Below are positions 1 through 64,000 of a stretch of DNA of 64,000 bases, one piece after another. Each line of letters opens with the position of its first letter. The stretch's first letter is position 1. A program made the translations under genes and the position numbers. Source of the stretch: a virus (lineage: Duplodnaviria; Caudoviricetes); IMG/VR virus record IMGVR_UViG_3300028833_000057, positions 203,827 through 267,826 of that record; one strand, 5' to 3'. The notes beneath the pieces were generated by a model. The model searched no databases. It worked only from the letters and a program-made list of their open reading frames with translations, and was not told the DNA's origin.

Positions 1-611
1 TTTACTTGTACAGCATTAATTGAATCTTTTATAGATTTAATGTATTCATTCTGAGAATTTGCTTTTTCCTTTTCAACAATATTGGAAAATTCTTCAAGAA
101 TTTTATTTATATTGCCTGCATCGTTTTGCTGCATAATAGCATCTTCAAATTTAAAAAGTGTAGCGTTAATATTATTGAATCTTTTTACTACAAAAGAATC
201 TGGAACATAATCTATGTTGGCTATATAATAAACCATAGAAGAACTAGACCCAGCTGCTTCTGTAGCTTTATTTTCTTCATTAGGCTTAGCATTAGTATTA
301 TTTTCTTCACCAGGTTTGCCAGAAATCTTCTCTTTAATTTTCTGATACATTCCTCTAATAAAAGAAATAAGCTTATTAAATAAATTGACAATAATATCTT
401 TAACTTTAAGTGCAAAGGCTTTTAAAGCTCCACCAACTTTCTTAGCAACATCTGCCAATCCTTCATTGGCAATAATAGAATAATAATCAATATTAAGGCT
501 ACATAATGTAGAATAATATTCCTGTGATGAATTCATTATAGTATTCATGAGTTCAAAATAACTACAAGTTTCTGTAGCCATAAGATTATGACGTAAATGA
601 TCTAAATACAT
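1..611 (-). CDS. Internal head protein paralog (truncated by window edge)
   Basis: Not in ORF track. ATG at 611 with GAGG RBS; reads MYLDHLRHNLMATETCSY...IIANEGLADVAKKVGG; same architecture as 27455, 38138 and 39181; open to window edge. Confidence 0.7.
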   Translation of the reverse strand, partial: MYLDHLRHNLMATETCSYFELMNTIMNSSQEYYSTLCSLNIDYYSIIANEGLADVAKKVGGALKAFALKVKDIIVNLFNKLISFIRGMYQKIKEKISGKPGEENNTNAKPNEENKATEAAGSSSSMVYYIANIDYVPDSFVVKRFNNINATLFKFEDAIMQQNDAGNINKILEEFSNIVEKEKANSQNEYIKSIKDSINAVQV

Positions 612-9472: not shown

Positions 9473-10654
9473 ATGGCTTCTTCTAAATGTTTTATAGAAT
9501 TAGATCCCTATATAAAAGCTTCTTTATCTAAACCTGAAAATTTAAAAAAGCTTTTAAATCATATTAGAGATTATTTAGGTAAAAATGCACAATTATTAGC
9601 AAAAGCATCAGTGGAAGAAAAACCTGGATTTTCTGTTAATGAAGATCAGCAGATAGTATTTGATTGTATGGGTATTGATAGACCTATGGTACTTGATGTT
9701 CTTACTAGAACGACGCAAAATGATGTACATAAAGGTTGGGCAGTATGGCAAGGTGAACAGTACTTGGCTTTTGCAATGTGTATTAGATATTTTGAAAAGA
9801 CAAAGAACAAGCAAGCATCACAGTTAATGCAGTTATATTTTGACATGCTTTGGTATAATGCATTGCATCGTAAGTACTTTAAGTATCCTCCAAAACATGA
9901 AGTAATGGAATATACAATTGCAAATTTATCAAATAAATATGATATTAAGCGTATTGGAAATCTTATAGGTACTTTAAGAAAAATCTCAGATAATAATCAT
10001 AAAAATGCATTATCAAGATTGTTATCTAATGAAGATGACAAGATATTTGTATATCAACGAGATCTTAGAACACGTCTTAATGGATTTATTAAAGCATTAT
10101 CTATACAATATTATGCAAACTATGAACAAGGCAATTATCTTAATGTAGATAAAGATAAAAATTCTGATGACGAAGGTAATGAATATTCAGTAGATAGAAA
10201 ATCAGATTCTGCGGCACTTTACAATGCAGCAGAAAGTTTTAGTTTATGGTTTGTTACTAATAGACTTAATGATCGTTTAGTTAAGATCTGTTCAGGAATT
10301 AGTCCTGAAATATCTCCCTTTAAATTCTCATCTGTTTTGAATGGAATTAAAGAAGATACAAAAGGTCGTTTAAAAAATATAGTTATAGGATTACTTGAAC
10401 AGCTTAGTGATATTCATGGCGATGCTACATTTAGAGCAATACATACGAAAGAGTTTCCTATATTCTGTATCCGTATGTTATCGAAATCTAATTCCAAGAA
10501 TGAATCTATAAATATGGTAAAGAATAATATAGATAGTTTACTAAATGATTATTGTAGTACATTTAAGACTACAAAAAGAGAAGCAACCAAGATTAATTAT
10601 AGAAAGGCCTTGATGTCTTATATAGCATTTGGTATTCAGCTTCAAAGAAAATAA
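9473..10654 (+). CDS. Candidate sigma-like promoter-specificity subunit of non-virion RNAP (AR9 gp226 / phiKZ gp68 type)
   Basis: 393 aa, helical and basic; YTIANLSNKYDIK segment recalls this family; lies near RNAP subunit genes; recognition from memory only. Confidence 0.45.
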   Translation: MASSKCFIELDPYIKASLSKPENLKKLLNHIRDYLGKNAQLLAKASVEEKPGFSVNEDQQIVFDCMGIDRPMVLDVLTRTTQNDVHKGWAVWQGEQYLAFAMCIRYFEKTKNKQASQLMQLYFDMLWYNALHRKYFKYPPKHEVMEYTIANLSNKYDIKRIGNLIGTLRKISDNNHKNALSRLLSNEDDKIFVYQRDLRTRLNGFIKALSIQYYANYEQGNYLNVDKDKNSDDEGNEYSVDRKSDSAALYNAAESFSLWFVTNRLNDRLVKICSGISPEISPFKFSSVLNGIKEDTKGRLKNIVIGLLEQLSDIHGDATFRAIHTKEFPIFCIRMLSKSNSKNESINMVKNNIDSLLNDYCSTFKTTKREATKINYRKALMSYIAFGIQLQRK

Positions 10655-10662
10655 ATAAAATA

Positions 10663-10816
10663 AACTAGCTTGAGTTCTCTCAAGCTAGTTTATCAACATA
10701 AGTCAAACAAAATGCAAAGGAACAATATCACAAGGAAGACATTGTTATAGGGGAAGGTCCCCTCTTATTGCTAAGAGGGGACGAATTCACCCGCCAACAA
10801 AGGAGCCATATGGCTC
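10663..10816 (-). ncRNA. Putative late antisense sRNA with anti-SD segments
   Basis: Late-type promoter at 10816-10827, 5' hairpin, internal 11-bp hairpin, terminator 10663-10690; 18-nt exact complement to RBS of gene 21924-22364. Confidence 0.6.
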
Positions 10817-10901
10817 AATTTTTAGTTATATATAACTAAAAATTTTTTATAATGTTAAATTCTTGACCTAAAAACTTCAAATTGTTTTAATAGGTTGCTT
10901 T

Positions 10902-21923: not shown

Positions 21924-22364
21924 TTATTTAAGTAAGCAATCAATAATTTCCCTATATGGATTATTAATAAATGAGAAAGATTGATTATTAATAATAATAC
22001 GATCTGGGAAAATTTCCACTTGCTTATTAAATAATTTTGATATAGCTTCAAAGAATATATACGGGATTATATTCAAATTTATAGAAAGAGTATTATTTTC
22101 TATATCATCTATAACCTTCATAAATACTGCATGACTAAAATCATCTATCTTAGATTGGAATCTTTCATCTTCATCATAGATAGAAAATTCAGCATAAAAG
22201 TTTTTAAAAGGTGATATAGCTAAGCAAGAAGTATTTCCTGGTAGCTTTACTATTACTCGATCCTTATTAAATGGATTTATTCCTTCAGGGTCATAGATTT
22301 TTACTACTACACCTTTATCTTGTAAGGCTTCAAGTATTTTTTGATTTAATTCAGATATATTCAT
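21924..22364 (-). CDS. Hypothetical protein, predicted sRNA target
   Basis: 146 aa; AAAGGA RBS. Confidence 0.7.
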   Translation of the reverse strand: MNISELNQKILEALQDKGVVVKIYDPEGINPFNKDRVIVKLPGNTSCLAISPFKNFYAEFSIYDEDERFQSKIDDFSHAVFMKVIDDIENNTLSINLNIIPYIFFEAISKLFNKQVEIFPDRIIINNQSFSFINNPYREIIDCLLK

Positions 22365-22388
22365 ATTTGTTCCTTTGCATTTTGAATA

Positions 22389-25133
22389 TTATATATCCTT
22401 AGTTTCATTAGATGTACTAGAAACCATTACAGGGCCACCTACAACGCTTATAACTACATCCTTCTTATATAATGGATACTTACTTACTTCTTCAGAAGTA
22501 GGTGTTATTACTCTACAGAAAAGTTGTTCTTTAAAGGATAAACTATTCTCGTAATTTCCATATCCACCATCTTGAGGAACATTGTCAAAACGCTTATCGG
22601 TGTCGATTACTAGCATTCCATTGTTATCTAGATAGGATTTCTGATTTGCAATCTTAGTTATAGAAACTTGTACTTCATCAAGTACTCGTTCATGAGTAGT
22701 ATTGGCAAGATTTAATCCTATACGATCTGTGTCAAAATATGGTTGTGATATTTTTTTACTGGGATCGTGCAACCATGGATATTTACCAGTAAAGATATAT
22801 TCGCCTAATATTTTCTTACGGTGAATATCGCCAGTAAATATATCATGCATTTGTATAGTAGATTGGCCTTTATTTGTAAGATCATAAACTGTACCACTAC
22901 TATGTAACTGTACCGTATAAGATTTTAGGTAATCTAATAACTTTACTGCATATATGATGATATAATCTTGTAAGAATGCTTTGAAGTTTACATCTTCTGT
23001 TAATTTAGTTTTCTTTCCATTAGGGGGAGGACTATAAACATATACATCTGATAGAGTATACATTATATCATCATATAGATTCATTAGTAGATCCATTCTA
23101 GTTTTCTTATCACCTAGAATTGCATCTGCAATTTTATTATATGCCTTAGGATGATTCAATATGAGATATTCCTCTATAGACATATTCTCATAATAACCAT
23201 ATCTATTTGAAAATTCATTTCTAGATTCAAATAGTGCTTCTTCATTCTTTATTAGAAGGGCGTGTTCAATTATAGTCTTTAGCCAAGGTACATGCTTAAA
23301 CTTATCGACTTCAATATTATTATCTTTAAGCCATGAATATAATATTTCTGCATATGAATCTTCATGACCAGTTGGCGAGACTAATGACCTATTTTCATAG
23401 TACCTATTTATTTTTGATATCAGCGATGATAGTAGAGCATCGGCAGGAAATTCTTCAGAGTTTTCTGGGATATCTATTCCGGTAATATCATCATCATCGT
23501 AAGATACTGCCATTAAAGCATTATTTAAGCCCTTGAGTACCTCAAAGTTATCTTTAAAATGTTGAGCAAATCCATAGTACAAGAAGTTATTATTACTTTT
23601 TGTACTCTTTAAAGATGAGTCAAATTCATAATCCTCTTTCTGCCAATAATTATAATTATTTTTATTGTATACGTCTAAAGTAAGGCTCTTGTACTTATTA
23701 TTTTCTTTATATACATTATTTAAGTCATATAAGTACGTAGCTAATACAGTAGATATATTCTTTGCATTTGGAGGAATATCATCGGATATATTGGTATCGA
23801 TATTCATCTTTGTAAGATATAATGCACAGGCAAATAATCCGAATAAATCAAGTGAAGGATCTTTTAATGAATTTGATCTTATTGGGAAACTATTTTTTGT
23901 TTCGTGAAGCATGCTAAAGAATAATAGAAGACCTTGGACATCAGGAATATTAGCTATTTCAGTATTTATAGCTATATATTTAGATTCAATGTAAGATCTA
24001 TCTCCTATTTTATCTTTAACTACATCGGCATCATAAGACTGATTCCAATATGCATCTTTACTAGTTATATCTTCGAAAGGTATCTTTATGATATCTTCGG
24101 CAGGAGTTTCCCCTAGATATTTTTCTACATCATATACATCATATGGAACTTTTACAAAGTAAAGATTTGCACTTTCTTTATGTTCTTTATACTCTTCATA
24201 AGACATTGTACCATTATTAAACGCTTCTTTCTCAGATTCACTAAATCCTAGATCACGGCACAAATAGTATTTGTATATTTTAGCAATATTATTATTAAAA
24301 ATGTCTTCTGTTATGATTTTATATACATTATCTGTACCCTTATTCTTAATAAGAGCACGAATATTACGTAATACTCTTAACTGGAATTCCAGTGGAAGAT
24401 CATTTAGGAATGTAATACCGAAACTGTATAGTGCATTTCTTATATCATACTGATCAAGTAGATCGTAGCTAAATTGTTTTTGTAATTCAGTATCTAAATA
24501 TGAGAATATTGTCATTAATGTAATAAACAGGCAGTTAAATTTACGATGCATATCATCATACATTGATGCCTGGTTTTCCATTACACTTGCAAACCATTCT
24601 CTATTTTCAGTATAGAGATCTAAGAAAACTTCTGCGTTTACATCTTCCGGTAAATAATTCTCATCATAGTCAAGAATAGAATAATCTTTAGCATTTCTAG
24701 TGGTCATTATATCTAGGCCATAGTAACAATATAATCCACGATAATATGCATTAAGCTCAAAGATATTCCCCATATATGGTGGATCAACCATCTGCTTATT
24801 CTTATTATGAACCGATCCTCTAACTTCTTTAAACCGCGACTCACTATCTGCTACATATTTAGTATTAAGCTCATATGCGTCAATAAAGAATTGCTGACCA
24901 TCGGGCATTAAGTTATATTCATTAAGATCTTCAGGAAAACCTTTCCTATCGTATTTATAGATATATGGTAAAGAATCATTTCTGCAGGATATATAATAGT
25001 TACTAAGTTCTACTGACTCTGGAGTTTCATAGCTATTGGCTAGATTCTGATTTTTAAATAAAAAGGTTTTCGCCCAGTTTATTAGATCTTTAAGCTTTTT
25101 AGCTTGTCTTTCTTCATATACGGCTCTTGACAT
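22389..25133 (-). CDS. Large virion protein, probably baseplate wedge
   Basis: 914 aa; LYSFG..LP...LRNIRALIKNKGT motif; late-type promoter at 25160-25171. Confidence 0.55.
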   Translation of the reverse strand: MSRAVYEERQAKKLKDLINWAKTFLFKNQNLANSYETPESVELSNYYISCRNDSLPYIYKYDRKGFPEDLNEYNLMPDGQQFFIDAYELNTKYVADSESRFKEVRGSVHNKNKQMVDPPYMGNIFELNAYYRGLYCYYGLDIMTTRNAKDYSILDYDENYLPEDVNAEVFLDLYTENREWFASVMENQASMYDDMHRKFNCLFITLMTIFSYLDTELQKQFSYDLLDQYDIRNALYSFGITFLNDLPLEFQLRVLRNIRALIKNKGTDNVYKIITEDIFNNNIAKIYKYYLCRDLGFSESEKEAFNNGTMSYEEYKEHKESANLYFVKVPYDVYDVEKYLGETPAEDIIKIPFEDITSKDAYWNQSYDADVVKDKIGDRSYIESKYIAINTEIANIPDVQGLLLFFSMLHETKNSFPIRSNSLKDPSLDLFGLFACALYLTKMNIDTNISDDIPPNAKNISTVLATYLYDLNNVYKENNKYKSLTLDVYNKNNYNYWQKEDYEFDSSLKSTKSNNNFLYYGFAQHFKDNFEVLKGLNNALMAVSYDDDDITGIDIPENSEEFPADALLSSLISKINRYYENRSLVSPTGHEDSYAEILYSWLKDNNIEVDKFKHVPWLKTIIEHALLIKNEEALFESRNEFSNRYGYYENMSIEEYLILNHPKAYNKIADAILGDKKTRMDLLMNLYDDIMYTLSDVYVYSPPPNGKKTKLTEDVNFKAFLQDYIIIYAVKLLDYLKSYTVQLHSSGTVYDLTNKGQSTIQMHDIFTGDIHRKKILGEYIFTGKYPWLHDPSKKISQPYFDTDRIGLNLANTTHERVLDEVQVSITKIANQKSYLDNNGMLVIDTDKRFDNVPQDGGYGNYENSLSFKEQLFCRVITPTSEEVSKYPLYKKDVVISVVGGPVMVSSTSNETKDI

Positions 25134-45773: not shown

Positions 45774-46004
45774 AATATCCTCTTATTTAATTATTATTCT
45801 ATAATTTAATATAATATGCAGGATAAAAATTTTACAAAAAAAAAAAATCTCTATAGCCTTATATGGACTATAGAGATATTTTTCAGTGTTATGCTACTTT
45901 GCACCATTAGTTTAACAGATTATGACACTTGTATGTTTAGGGAATAATTTTGTGTGATAAGGTCTTATTAAACTAACTAGTTCGTTAAGCTAGATCTACA
46001 CTAG

Positions 46005-46076
46005 AGCCTAATGAATGATTCGAACACTCGACATATACATTACAAATGTATCGTTCTACCACTGAACTAATTAGGC
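46005..46076 (-). tRNA. tRNA-Thr(UGU)
   Basis: GCCTAAT/ATTAGGC acceptor, TT-TGT-AA loop, TTCGAAT. Confidence 0.9.
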
Positions 46077-46080
46077 GGAA

Positions 46081-46205
46081 CCTTAACATAAGTACTGACT
46101 AAATCCACCCCTCGGTGCGATAGAGCCATCGTCATCACTGACTACTTCAAGGCCATTCAACTAATCTATATGAAATACAAATTAGTCTGACCACTTATGT
46201 TAAGG
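46081..46205 (-). ncRNA. Unidentified 125-nt structured RNA
   Basis: Perfect 13-bp closing stem CCTTAACATAAGT/ACTTATGTTAAGG, between tRNAs. Confidence 0.55.
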
Positions 46206-59192: not shown

Positions 59193-61094
59193 TTAAGCTG
59201 TAGCAAATATAGATAGTAACTCTTCTTGATCAGGTAGACCAAGATATTTACTACCTATAGCAAAGTTATCTCGGCTAACTACGAAATCAGCTAGTTCTGC
59301 AGAGAAATTTACATCACCTACATCTGCTTTAGGATATATCTTGCCAATAAGGGTAGTAATATAGATATTCCATGCAATCTTCAGGTTAGGATATAGTGAT
59401 GAAAGGTCTGAGTCCGCAACTAGATCGAAGATAAGAGAAGATAGTTTGCCAAGGATTTCTACTCCGAGTGGTGACATTAACTTAGGATCTGCCACGAAAG
59501 CTCCACGGAATTTAACCTTCTTAGTCTTACCTTGGCTTTGCACAAGTTCTACGATGCTTTCTTCTTCTACTTCATCATCTTCTTCTGCTGTATCTAGAAC
59601 ATTTAGTATATTTACAACTGCATCAGCTTTTTCATTTTTAACTTTATATGGTTTTAATTCAGGATAACGATCCAGTGTTTTACCATTTTCTTCTGCTTTC
59701 TTTACTAGCTGATTATATACTTTAGTACGGTTATTAGATATAACTAAGCCTAGATATTTCTTATAGAAATCATCAATAAGATTTCTAAGCATTGTAGTCT
59801 TAGTCATAGCCTTATCAATTCTGGTATGAGATAGGCTACTCAACATCGTCATAGTATCAATATCAGATGTCTTGGTATCAAACCAGTAAAGACCCATAGT
59901 ATCTATTGCAGAGTACAAAACAAATTCTGCATAATCTTCATATGGATAGTCTGCAATATCACAGTCATGCTGAACTTTATGTATACCGAGTTCAGACTCA
60001 AGAGCATAGTCCAGAGAATATTCTTCAGGCTTCTTCATAGATTCACGAATCTTTAAGAAGAAGTACTGCATATCTAGACATTCCCAAGGGCTAGATATAC
60101 GATGCCTATCATTCTTTTTAGATAAATCCTTAGCATGTTCATCGCCAATATAATATGCATCTCTAAATGATACTGGGATCTCATCTGCAGATACTACATC
60201 GCATAGATACTCATAAGATTTCTTATCTCTAAGACGACCAAATGTGAAATTAATATCGAATTCTTGGTTCCATGCCATCAAATAGTCAATCTTATACTTA
60301 TTTTTTAAGTCCATATAATGATCTGTAATCATCTGGACTTCATCGCTGTAAAACTTAATTTCTAACTTTACAGGTGGCAATGGTGCCTTCTCAAAAAGCT
60401 TTTGTTGTTGTTCATTAATATGCTTTTCTATTCTTACTCGATGCTCTTCTAAATGCTTTTTAAACTCTTCAAGTTGCGGATTAAACTCTATATACTGCTC
60501 TTCATCACCACTGTTATCAAGCAATCGTATAATTTCTGTATGAGTATGTGCATCAAAGAAAGATATGGCATTAACGGGAGTACTATGTACTTTACCAGGT
60601 ACAAAATCTCTTACTTTACGGTTATTGGTCTCAATATCAAAATAACCTTTACGAATGTTTTTAATCTCTAGATCATTCTCATATTTAGATAAAAATCTAT
60701 GAAAATAGTGATCTTCAAGATTTATATCTATACCATGAGTATGATTTAGCAATAAGAGATTTTCTGGTGAAGTTCTATTTTTTCTACAAGCTGCTAGATA
60801 ATTAAAATTCTTTTCAGCTTCCTCTTTATCAAAATCTGCTTGAAGCCTTACAATTTCATCATATACTTCAGAATATGGACATTCACATTCTTCAACGTCT
60901 GATAAGGGCATTGTTACGGGATCTGCACCTTCATATTCTTTAATTTTATCAAGTTTTGTAGTATAAAACTTTACTGTAGGCTTTGACGTAAACTTAACTT
61001 TCTTTACACCATCTTCATAATAAACTATAGCTATACCATCTTGGTATTTATCATTTCTTAGCTGCTTTACAGTAACTAATTCATATTTAGGCAT
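59193..61094 (-). CDS. Family B DNA polymerase, N-terminal subunit (3'-5' exonuclease plus motif A)
   Basis: ExoI FDIET, ExoII AWNQEFD, ExoIII YSAID, FRGAFV, motif A DLSSLYP. Confidence 0.9.
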   Translation of the reverse strand: MPKYELVTVKQLRNDKYQDGIAIVYYEDGVKKVKFTSKPTVKFYTTKLDKIKEYEGADPVTMPLSDVEECECPYSEVYDEIVRLQADFDKEEAEKNFNYLAACRKNRTSPENLLLLNHTHGIDINLEDHYFHRFLSKYENDLEIKNIRKGYFDIETNNRKVRDFVPGKVHSTPVNAISFFDAHTHTEIIRLLDNSGDEEQYIEFNPQLEEFKKHLEEHRVRIEKHINEQQQKLFEKAPLPPVKLEIKFYSDEVQMITDHYMDLKNKYKIDYLMAWNQEFDINFTFGRLRDKKSYEYLCDVVSADEIPVSFRDAYYIGDEHAKDLSKKNDRHRISSPWECLDMQYFFLKIRESMKKPEEYSLDYALESELGIHKVQHDCDIADYPYEDYAEFVLYSAIDTMGLYWFDTKTSDIDTMTMLSSLSHTRIDKAMTKTTMLRNLIDDFYKKYLGLVISNNRTKVYNQLVKKAEENGKTLDRYPELKPYKVKNEKADAVVNILNVLDTAEEDDEVEEESIVELVQSQGKTKKVKFRGAFVADPKLMSPLGVEILGKLSSLIFDLVADSDLSSLYPNLKIAWNIYITTLIGKIYPKADVGDVNFSAELADFVVSRDNFAIGSKYLGLPDQEELLSIFATA

Positions 61095-61615
61095 TTAATT
61101 TATCCTTGAATTCGTTTTTAAAAGTTAAGGCTACCGGCGCCGACACCAAATCCAAATTGACCTCTAGTATTTATGCCGGGTCCAAATCTGATACCACCAT
61201 CATCAGATGGTCTACGTCTTTCTCTTTTTGCTTCTTCTTCAGCTTTCATCTTCTCATAGCATACAGGATCCTGCTTACATGCTTTAACTTTTTGATTCTC
61301 ATTATATGCTATGCATCCTATAACTATAAATACTAATACTGTAATGATTATATTTACCAAAGTATTTACCTGATCTTTATCCATTTTTACTCCTTGTGTA
61401 ATAAAACGTTGATTATAATAAATAATAGATTTTGAAGATTACTCTTCAAAATCTATTATTTCTAACTCCACATCTCTAAATTTAGCATGAGGAATCCCAG
61501 TATCATCACAAGAAATTGTGGCTCATAATAAACTATAGCTATACCATCTTGGTATTTATCATTTCTTAGCTGCTTTACAGTAACTAATTCATATTTAGGC
61601 ATTTAATTTATCCTT
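61015..61615. repeat. 93-bp exact direct repeat (61015-61107 / 61523-61615) of the polymerase 5' end
   Basis: Identical sequence at 508-bp offset. Confidence 0.95.
61118..61384 (-). CDS. Small membrane-anchored protein (cassette 1)
   Basis: 88 aa; N-terminal TM; Gly-rich C-terminus. Confidence 0.7.
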   Translation of the reverse strand: MDKDQVNTLVNIIITVLVFIVIGCIAYNENQKVKACKQDPVCYEKMKAEEEAKRERRRPSDDGGIRFGPGINTRGQFGFGVGAGSLNF

Positions 61616-62728: not shown

Positions 62729-63032
62729 AAGATACCTTAGCGTAAGTATTCTTTATAAAGTTTTCTAATACATCTTTAGCTTCATTTAAAGCATGTTTAT
62801 TAACTACTTCAGAGTTTTCACCAGAATATACTATCTTTATTCCATCTTTCATAGGTTTGTATACTATTAAGTATAACGGCACCCATGAAGAATCTATGCA
62901 GTATGTATCGGTATAAAAACCTTTCTTTTCTTCTTCATTAATTTCTAAAAGTGCATCTAAACCCTTAAAATATTTAAGATATTCAGAACCTGCTTTTAAA
63001 TTCAAAACATCTAAACGGCGAGATAAAATCAT
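62718..63032 (-). CDS. Hypothetical protein
   Basis: 104 aa ORF. Confidence 0.65.
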   Translation of the reverse strand: MILSRRLDVLNLKAGSEYLKYFKGLDALLEINEEEKKGFYTDTYCIDSSWVPLYLIVYKPMKDGIKIVYSGENSEVVNKHALNEAKDVLENFIKNTYAKVSYVK

Positions 63033-63445
63033 TAGCTAAAATCTCCTTCTATAATATCGTAAGTTTCGTTAGGTGGATTGGATACTACAAAATATGCCCT
63101 TTGTCGCCATAGCCCTATATTAGAATCATATACGGCATGATTATCAATTTCAAATTCATTAATTTCATTTTTTGTCATAAAAGAAGCTGCGGGTTTATAT
63201 GTATTATCTGTATCGCCTTTATAACCGCGCTTAGTAATAGTATCTAGTAATTCTTCTACGGATACTTTCTGTTGGTATTCATTATATACTATATTGTCCT
63301 TATTATTAATATAATCTTTCCACTGATCTAAGTTTTCCAAGATACCTGGGATATAATGTAAAGAAAAAGCCCATCCAATAGAGGACTTTCCAATATGAAG
63401 AGGTTTTTCTCTTCCTTTAAGTCTAATATAGTAATTTGTACTCAT
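63032..63445 (-). CDS. Conserved phage hypothetical protein (MSTNYY..LHIGKSS.GW.F family)
   Basis: Recognisable motif; AAAGGAG RBS at ATG 63445. Confidence 0.75.
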   Translation of the reverse strand: MSTNYYIRLKGREKPLHIGKSSIGWAFSLHYIPGILENLDQWKDYINNKDNIVYNEYQQKVSVEELLDTITKRGYKGDTDNTYKPAASFMTKNEINEFEIDNHAVYDSNIGLWRQRAYFVVSNPPNETYDIIEGDFS

Positions 63446-63492
63446 AAAGCTCCTTTGTGTCAACTAAATGTTAGTCGTATAGAATCTCATGG

Positions 63493-63557
63493 AAAAATAA
63501 ACACATAGCCCGAAGGCTATGTGTTTACTCGTTTAACCCAATAAGGAGGTATTCCTC
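63493..63557 (-). ncRNA. Putative ~65-nt late sRNA with perfect anti-SD
   Basis: Promoter identical to that at 10814-10829; contains ACCUCCUUA; 13-bp terminator stem with UUCG loop. Confidence 0.55.
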
Positions 63558-63566
63558 AATTTTTAG

Positions 63567-63935
63567 TTATTGCTGTGGTGCATTTGCCTTTTCAGCCTTT
63601 TTAATGGCTGCGGACAAACTGCCTTCATATAAATTGCCGGAACTTACAACGATAGACTTAGCTTTACCCCAATATTTTGCACGAAGTCTAGCTCTCCATA
63701 CACGAGAAAGCTTAAAGAACTTCACAAACTTATAGTATAGGATATCATTATTCTGCTTGGCAAGAAGCATACACACTTTAGCAATACGTTTATCCATAAT
63801 AGACTTAGTATCCCAAGTTTGACGCTTGATCTTAATACCTTCAGAAGCAAGCATATCCATTTCTTCTGGTGTAATATCTGATAGAATTTCTTTCAGAAGC
63901 ATTTCATTCTGTGCAGAGAGTTCTGTATCTTTCAT
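63567..63935 (-). CDS. Putative processed head protein
   Basis: Acidic propeptide ending ASE|G, followed by a basic domain. Confidence 0.5.
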   Translation of the reverse strand: MKDTELSAQNEMLLKEILSDITPEEMDMLASEGIKIKRQTWDTKSIMDKRIAKVCMLLAKQNNDILYYKFVKFFKLSRVWRARLRAKYWGKAKSIVVSSGNLYEGSLSAAIKKAEKANAPQQ

Positions 63936-64000
63936 AATAAACCTTTAAGTTTTGTATTTCAATAAAGAAGTTGAAAAAAAAAAAAAAACACAAAAGCAAT

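Follow-up and report, generated by a model that had tools for sequence, protein, structure and literature searches.

The T4 endoribonuclease RegB inactivates early phage mRNAs through the GGAG of their Shine-Dalgarno (SD) sequences and aids the switch from early to late expression. How giant phages that carry their own RNA polymerases (RNAPs) re-program translation over time is poorly understood. Late promoters of the phage AR9 share the consensus AACA-6N-T-A/G, the last base of which is the start site (PMC5312081; PMC7598289). Transcript mapping in the phiKZ-like phages 201phi2-1 and phiKZ shows units devoid of an open reading frame (ORF), in which a terminator lies right after the start (PMC11512511), and novel RNAs were found in phiR1-37 (PMC12197685). 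A search of the literature found no described jumbo-phage RNA family with an anti-SD sequence.

Here we analyze a locus near the end of the window, by which we mean the whole stretch of DNA that was analyzed, the final 64 kb of a single 267,826-bp virus record (33% G+C). Positions refer to the window unless given as genome positions. The unit at 63493-63568 on the minus strand, s1, has in our judgment an even chance of being an independent late small-RNA gene of an AR9/phiR1-37-like phage, the product of which masks early ribosome sites.

The Phage Genome and Its Relatives

The record is rated complete (IMG/VR CheckV), and the phage encodes a B-family DNA polymerase that is a distant relative of the enzymes of the Bacillus phages AR9, PBS1, and BpSp and of the Yersinia phage phiR1-37. 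Profile searches matched one frame of the genome to PF00562 (beta-like) and two to PF00623 (beta'-like), and a 475-aa protein matches the RNA polymerase entry phrog_25005; homologues of both beta and beta' of a split multisubunit RNAP, which an AR9-type late unit calls for, are present in the phage genome. AAGGAG sites are frequent, which suggests a host that uses Shine-Dalgarno pairing. The 5' end of the DNA polymerase gene (59193-61094, minus strand) is duplicated: the first 27 residues of a 46-aa ORF at 61462-61602 (minus strand) repeat the N-terminus of the polymerase, and an 88-aa gene separates the two copies. The record ends overlap as well, with the start of the gene preceding s1 (gene A, see below) and its upstream region occurring twice (window ~63860-64000; genome 1-~140). 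Poly-T length and a few bases distinguish these two copies, a pattern that a circularly permuted or terminally redundant assembly would give.

Queries with single proteins found no close relatives in IMG/VR; the relatives used here were obtained via a protein database, an alignment query, and DNA patterns. The most informative for distant comparisons, designated G001, is an independent, complete genome of 259 kb with 42% G+C and ~53% protein identity to this phage.

Early and Late Promoter Classes

Promoter words were found by counting k-mers in intergenic DNA. Upstream of genes in this genome, 35 sense copies of the late word, AAC[A/T]-N6-TG, were counted against 7 expected (~5-fold), and 17 antisense copies; G001 has 42 copies in sense and 8 in antisense, with 8.3 expected. 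The enrichment is absent at spacings of N5 or N7, and the copies lie mostly 16-36 nt before start codons, often those of large genes. The early word, TATATTAA, is found 70 times in sense upstream of genes in this genome (5.5 expected), and 32 times in sense and 3 times in antisense in G001 (1.6 expected).

Early promoters are often followed by a 5' hairpin with a loop of AAUUNN or UGUGGUAA (e.g., genome 92319, 130947, 208863 (-)), and a near-identical start region, AAGGAGCCAUUAUG, stands after these hairpins, which resembles a promoter/stem-loop cassette. Late-type words are present directly before a tRNA gene (genome 134203, minus strand) and, in the tRNA region at ~45900-46200 of the window (minus strand), before short ORF-less stretches ending in terminators; several noncoding RNAs seem to be driven by late promoters.

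The Site 1 Unit

The s1 unit lies between two minus-strand genes: gene A upstream (63567..63935; 122 aa), with a weak PHROG match to a virion structural protein, and gene B downstream (63032..63445; 137 aa), with no assigned function. The TAA stop codon of gene A overlaps the 5' edge of a late-type promoter, P1 (AACTAAAAATTG; 63557..63568, minus strand), which fits AAC[AT]-N6-T-G(+1) with a predicted +1 at G63557. After the stop codon the minus strand reads CTAAAAATTG-AGGAAUACCUCCUUAUUGGGUUAAACGAG, followed by an intrinsic terminator (63493..63530) consisting of a 16-bp hairpin with a UUCG loop and a U tract (U5). P1 and this terminator bound a predicted small RNA of 65 nt (63493..63557, minus strand), which contains no ORF and folds at -26.7 kcal/mol. 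A second late-type promoter, P2 (AACATTTAGTTG; 63461..63472, minus strand), lies 3' of the terminator as a separate promoter copy for gene B, its predicted +1 at G63461 being 16 nt before the ATG. No sigma-70-type promoter was found before s1.

The RNA would begin with GAGG-AAUA-CCUC-CUUAUUGGGUUAA, in which the 5' hairpin (63546..63557) starts at +1 and has a stem that is kept in relatives. CUUAUUGGGUUAA is predicted to be unpaired, and the CCUC sits in the 4-bp stem of the hairpin (UCCUU in relatives). Inside a block of 19 nt, AUACCUCCUUAUUGGGUUA (63534..63552), lies ACCUCCUUA (63542-63550), which is identical to the final 9 nt of E. coli rrsA as annotated, in agreement with an earlier sequence-only reading that had noted the 3'-terminal sequence of 16S rRNA here.

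That reading had also paired site 1 with a second locus, site 2, with which it shares a 16-mer. The reverse complements of 63555-63570 and of 10814-10829 are both ATAACTAAAAATTGAG, which has only these two exact copies in 267,826 bp, plus a single copy with two mismatches at genome 569-584. The identity is thus exact, but it is not above chance, given that ~10 exact repeated 16-mers per 64 kb and ~100 per genome are expected at this composition; we therefore did not use it as evidence, and the weight lies on context and conservation. The common design described for the two sites was borne out: a GAG start and a short 5' hairpin running into CUCCUU are found on the minus strand of each, and each ends in a strong terminator of hairpin and U tract. 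The s1 terminator (-26 kcal/mol, z = -6) is absent from the list of a simple terminator scan, since its stem absorbs part of the U tract; the same scan did list that of site 2. Both promoters read AACT-AAAAAT-T-G, with T at -8, and the predicted starts (G63557 and G10816) are exactly the first base of each 5' hairpin.

Searches against Rfam 15 at gathering and E-value thresholds gave no family at s1 or s2, with only tRNAs passing in the window; the best scores below threshold were PyrR (30 bits vs 54) and RsaE (15 vs 79). On the plus strand of site 1 there is no ATG, GTG, or TTG at 4-13 nt from the AAGGAGG, as had been observed, and a mini-ORF or decayed gene start was rejected, as indels of 1-2 nt in the relatives break any reading frame. 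A plus-strand word resembling a late promoter at 63462-63473 was judged to be coincidental because it is the reverse complement of P2 and present in only two of five lineages.

Conservation of the s1 Unit

Gene A homologues at 87-90% identity provided five distinct lineages with the s1 arrangement. Invariant in their alignment are the AAC and the T-1/G+1 of P1 and all 19 nt of AUACCUCCUUAUUGGGUUA, whereas the promoter N6, the hairpin loop, the 3' end of gene A (11/32 columns invariant), and the spacer before P2 (3/21 invariant) vary; P2 itself retains AACA-N6-TG in all relatives. Third codon positions are three-way invariant at a fraction of 0.46 in gene A and 0.38 in gene B, so that 19 invariant nucleotides in a row are far beyond the neutral expectation. 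The 5' hairpin tolerates indels in its loop (AAUA, AUA, CGAAUA) with the stem retained, and the terminator stem shows compensatory changes, including a minus-strand G.U pair in one lineage (L001). The alignment supports strong purifying selection acting on the s1 unit.

Next to more distant homologues of gene A (58-68% identity) the unit is missing. An s1-type copy does occur in G001 and its sister records, where AACTCTATAATG-AGGCGAAUACCUCCUUUUUUGGGUUAACG and, after it, a long hairpin stand behind an unrelated 483-aa gene whose stop codon again overlaps the promoter word. The conserved block is kept there as GAAUACCUCCUU-UU-UUGGGUUAA, with UU where the window has A. Relatives keep AUACCUCCUU, and the next base differs in G001, so the full 16S-like 9-mer is lost and ACCUCCUU is retained. 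The occurrence of promoter, 5' hairpin, and ACCUCCUU..UUGGGUUAA behind an unrelated gene indicates that the module moves independently of its neighbors, which speaks against a function bound to either gene A or gene B. Taken with the selection on the unit, this makes it likely that s1 is a real, functional minus-strand RNA element.

A Sister Unit and the Wider Family

The predicted RNA at site 2, s2, is ~165 nt long (10650..10816, minus strand) and antisense-oriented between two plus-strand genes; a minus-strand RNA flanked in this way needs a promoter of its own. Its predicted promoter is AACTAAAAATTG (10816..10827, minus strand; +1 at G10816), and the transcript would start with GAGCC-AUAU-GGCUC-CUUUGUUGG. 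The 5' hairpin (10803-10816) begins at +1, and the other features of s2 are AUGGCUCCUUUGUUGG (10794-10809), a covarying hairpin (10757-10782), and the terminator (10659-10694). Relatives with s2 share 93, 90, 69, 61, 56, and 52-53% protein identity with this phage, and four features are kept on the minus strand: the promoter word (with the variants AACTTAAAATTG, AACATTTCTTTG, AACTTTTACATG, and AACATAAATATG), the 5' hairpin at +1, CUCCU(U), and a G+C-rich hairpin preceded by UGG(N)GGGUG. The inner pairs of the 5' hairpin change between relatives (GAGCC/GGCUC, GAGCU/AGCUC, GAGGC/GCCUC, GGGGCG/CGUCUC, GAGGGCC/GGUUCUC), and in the second helix both partners differ in 9 of 11 pairs while all cells remain paired, including G.U pairs on the minus strand.

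With a covariance model based on the three close s2 copies, the distant copies were recovered at E ~1e-7 and the s1-type copy of G001 at E = 0.18. In the model-fitted alignment, which leans toward the model and whose pairing figures are to be read with this caveat, 95.8% of cells pair and 10 of 16 pairs change on both sides, with no shuffled or slid register coming close. Judged from these alignments, site 2 is a conserved minus-strand RNA with covarying helices, found in relatives down to 52% protein identity. A plus-strand alternative at the same site, AAAGGAGCC-AT-ATG opening a 9-codon ORF, was rejected, the ATG being lost in two relatives (L014, L015).

The search of the genome for further units that the sequence-only reading had proposed was carried out for a late promoter followed by CTCCTT in intergenic DNA, and returned s1, s2, and one more locus, s3, only. 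s3 (genome 32790-32895, plus strand; L018:991-1096) comprises AACATTATTATG, an RNA with AUCUCCUUGUGUUGUUAGG, a terminator, another late promoter, and a gene, the same layout as at site 1. It was not found at the orthologous place in G001, and its membership is therefore a matter of design. A fourth late ORF-less unit, u4 (genome ~425-584, minus strand; L019), lies just upstream of gene A across the record ends. It starts with ATAACTATAAATTG, two bases off the 16-mer of s1 and s2, from which an RNA of ~150 nt follows, with CUUUCCUUGUGUGUCCUCUUAG in an internal loop and the terminator ACGGUCAAAGC/GCUUUGACCGU + U6. G001 has three such units; at G001 22964-23010 (minus strand; L060), 1.5 kb from the s1-type copy, lies a further unit, in which a late promoter precedes a long 5' hairpin, UAUACUCCUCCUUCUUGG, and a terminator. 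s1 is thus very probably one of at least two such units of this phage, s1 and s2, and perhaps of four, with s3 and u4. Of the proposed family of anti-SD RNAs, the part that stands is a set of ORF-less units (s1 and s2 on the minus strand, probably s3 and u4, and three in G001), together with the strong purifying selection on s1.

Probable Transcription from Its Own Promoter

The s1 unit doubles as the 3' end of the mRNA of gene A, and its sequence could therefore exist only as a 3' UTR. The element would then serve the stability of, or protein binding to, the upstream mRNA; P1 would be inactive, and any small RNA would derive from processing. Such a role would fit the position of the unit, which in the window as in G001 comes directly after a co-oriented gene whose stop codon overlaps the motif. 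It does not, however, account for the constant distance of AAC and TG from the hairpin, which is maintained even behind an unrelated gene although the N6 and the coding sequence upstream change, nor for the hairpin starting exactly at the predicted +1, and s2 shows the same design with no co-oriented gene upstream. We consider this explanation unlikely.

The early and late mRNAs of phage T4 lysozyme (gene e) offer a model for a different dependence on the neighbors, an anti-SD acting in cis. In read-through transcripts, from gene A or from P1, CUCCUUAUUG would pair with the SD of gene B and silence it, and transcripts from P2, which lack the 5' arm, would be translated. RNAalifold on six relatives indeed pairs CUCCUU-A-UUG with the (C/U)AA-N-AAGGAG of gene B around the terminator, and P2 lies between the two pairing arms. 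The six core pairs are, however, all invariant and show no covariation, and any CUCCUU pairs with any SD. The module in G001 follows a different gene and has no gene B after it, s2 has no downstream gene on its strand, and the gene downstream of s3 has no AAGGAG. Regulation in cis is accordingly improbable, slightly more so than the 3' UTR, and we favor transcription of s1 from its own promoter, which we hold to be somewhat better than an even bet.

Start Regions and Possible Targets

Early and late genes differ in their start regions. GGAG is present in the start region of 41/71 genes with an early promoter against 6/36 with a late one in this genome (p = 7e-5), and of 14/32 against 2/38 in G001 (p = 1.5e-4). 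The suggested search for complements of the anti-SD upstream of phage start codons identified five intergenic sites where AAGGAGG precedes a start codon on the gene-bearing strand, all of them behind TATATTAA-type promoters. Predicted duplexes of s1 are stronger with early (mean -12.2 kcal/mol) than with late start regions (-9.9 kcal/mol; p = 0.005; shuffled RNA -8.6), and the same holds for the two CCUCCUU units of G001 (p = 0.01, 0.005); this difference is, however, a trivial consequence of GGAG content.

No phage start region is perfectly complementary to s1 over more than 10 nt, a length reached in two early regions and modestly above background, and no specific complement beyond the generic AAGGAGG was found in the phage start regions. 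UUGGGUUAA has no complement near any phage start codon except one 9-nt match, and no phage target with an extended complement to UUGGGUUAA and the SD was found. An early RNAP-subunit gene was the best candidate target and the sole one tested for co-variation: it has AAUAAGGAGG here and AUGAGGUAAU in the G001 orthologue, where the RNA has CCUCCUUUUUUGGG. As the two do not co-vary in G001, this gene was rejected as a feedback target of s1. More extended matches are seen for s2, which carries at 10708-10725 an 18-nt perfect complement (UUGUUCCUUUGCAUUUUG) to the leader of the gene at 21924-22364 (minus strand; with leader, 21924-22384) and, in its 5' part, 14-nt perfect complements to two early genes elsewhere in the genome; matches of s2 of at least 10 nt occur in 6.8% of start regions against 0.8% of background windows. 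A search of 185,579 prokaryote genomes with the exact RNA core or its complement gave 110 scattered matches (ACCTCCTT-N-TTGGGTTAA), all antisense of ordinary ribosome sites and none in 16S, and no clue to a host or target.

The earlier suggestion that these RNAs occlude mRNAs with strong SD sequences is weakened by the lack of a target beyond generic AAGGAGG, by the RNAP-subunit gene not co-varying, and by the position of CCUC within the hairpin. The RNA could instead be a protein decoy, a mimic of the 16S 3' tail that offers ACCUCCUU and UUGGGUUAA to an rRNA-recognizing host or phage protein and does not pair with mRNA. The 9-nt identity with the 3' end of E. coli 16S would be explained, as would the invariance of the exposed UUGGGUUAA, for which no mRNA complement was found; UUGGGUUAA presumably also occurs in the conserved 16S region around position 1090. 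Against a mimic, no identity is conserved beyond ACCUCCUU (A here, UU in G001), the GCUCCUU of s2 and UCUCCUU of s3 fit phage start regions better than 16S, and nine matching bases in an rRNA of 1.5 kb, here that of E. coli, are not significant. We regard a decoy as having little probability, comparable to that of regulation in cis.

Less probable still is a role at the level of DNA, as an extended promoter, operator, or replication or packaging signal, with no role for the RNA. Sequence invariance as such names no strand, and the 16-mer at site 2 lies within a 28-bp palindrome. The helices covary, however, and their G.U pairs would read A.C on the opposite strand; the U-tract terminator exists on the minus strand only, and the design repeats with different sequences, all of which makes such an element very unlikely. 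An ordinary intergenic terminator region that happens to contain an SD complement can practically be set aside: 16-mer repeats are expected by chance and the 110 bacterial matches are scattered, but the 19-nt block does not change where its surroundings have diverged, and it is found again at a different locus in a relative of 53% protein identity.

A Possible Role in Translation and Comparison with Known Systems

The reading that we prefer is that of an RNA made late and acting on early translation. The phage non-virion RNAP would read P1 (AACTAAAAATTG) and start at G63557; the RNA would fold its 5' hairpin from the first base, exposing CUUAUUGGGUUAA beside a half-buried CCUCC, and transcription would end at the strong intrinsic terminator ~65 nt after the start. 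Late in infection s1 would pair with the GGAG-type SD regions of early phage genes, and presumably of host genes, whose translation would be lowered, and late genes, mostly of the AAGGA type, would be spared. Late-polymerase RNAs that turn down GGAG-type translation are the simplest reading of the early/late GGAG split, the duplex energies, and the complements of s2. We infer the masking step, given that no specific target and no co-variation were found, that CCUC lies in the hairpin, and that only ACCUCCUU is kept in G001; that s1 acts by masking ribosome-binding sites is thus put forward tentatively, at somewhat less than even confidence.

In its widest form the proposal is that a conserved family of short RNAs of AR9-like jumbo phages, made by the late RNAP and carrying the anti-SD of the ribosome, acts as a global sponge for GGAG-type sites that switches translation from early and host genes to late genes with their weaker AAGGA-type site, a proposal that we hold to be possible but rather unlikely. 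The GGAG-early/AAGGA-late split together with conserved complementary late RNAs makes a simple, testable model of a switch run by RNA, and one that specifies a molecule of 65 nt, the base at which it is predicted to start, and its motif. Should s1 bind a protein or an rRNA-directed factor instead, this would be equally new. Overall, s1 is a real, conserved late small-RNA gene that is probably transcribed independently, and the proposed mechanism is plausible.

Among described systems, AR9 is closest in its transcription. Its late units have the promoter AAC(A)-N6-T-G/A and start at the final base of this word, as is predicted for this phage; it likewise encodes split multisubunit RNAPs and has an AT-rich, TATATTAT-like class of early promoters, the counterpart of which here is TATATTAA; and its late promoters also drive antisense and tRNA transcripts (PMC5312081; PMC7598289). 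The promoters of s1 and s2 differ from its consensus in having T, not A, at -8, the start sites here are predicted from sequence, and late RNAs that lack an ORF and share an anti-SD motif are not described as a family in the AR9 work. Short transcripts without ORFs are known from jumbo phages that carry their own RNAPs; some are conserved across genera, and their functions are not established (PMC11512511; PMC12197685). The RNAs of the phiKZ-like phages and phiR1-37 were seen experimentally and carry no proposed anti-SD role, whereas s1 is a prediction.

The c4 antisense RNA of phages P1 and P7 (PMC12197685) resembles the proposal for s1 in being a phage small RNA that acts in trans on the ribosome-binding region of phage mRNA. 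It arises, however, by processing of a longer transcript, belongs to a temperate phage, and acts on the specific targets a' and b', whereas s1 would present a generic SD complement in a jumbo phage from a late promoter of the viral-RNAP type; s1 has no sequence or structure match in Rfam, C4 included. RsaE/RoxS of the Firmicutes (RF01820) is a short, terminator-ended RNA with a pyrimidine-rich motif that pairs with many G-rich ribosome-binding sites, as proposed here. s1 differs from it in having CCUCCUU and not CCCC, in holding the motif partly in a stem, and in its phage origin, and s2 is not a member of that family, given its score of 15 bits against a gathering score of 79, obtained at site 2 only. 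RegB, lastly, is a protein nuclease made early, and the agent proposed here is an RNA made late, with masking as its putative mode of action; if the proposal is true, the sponge would be the RNA counterpart of T4 RegB.
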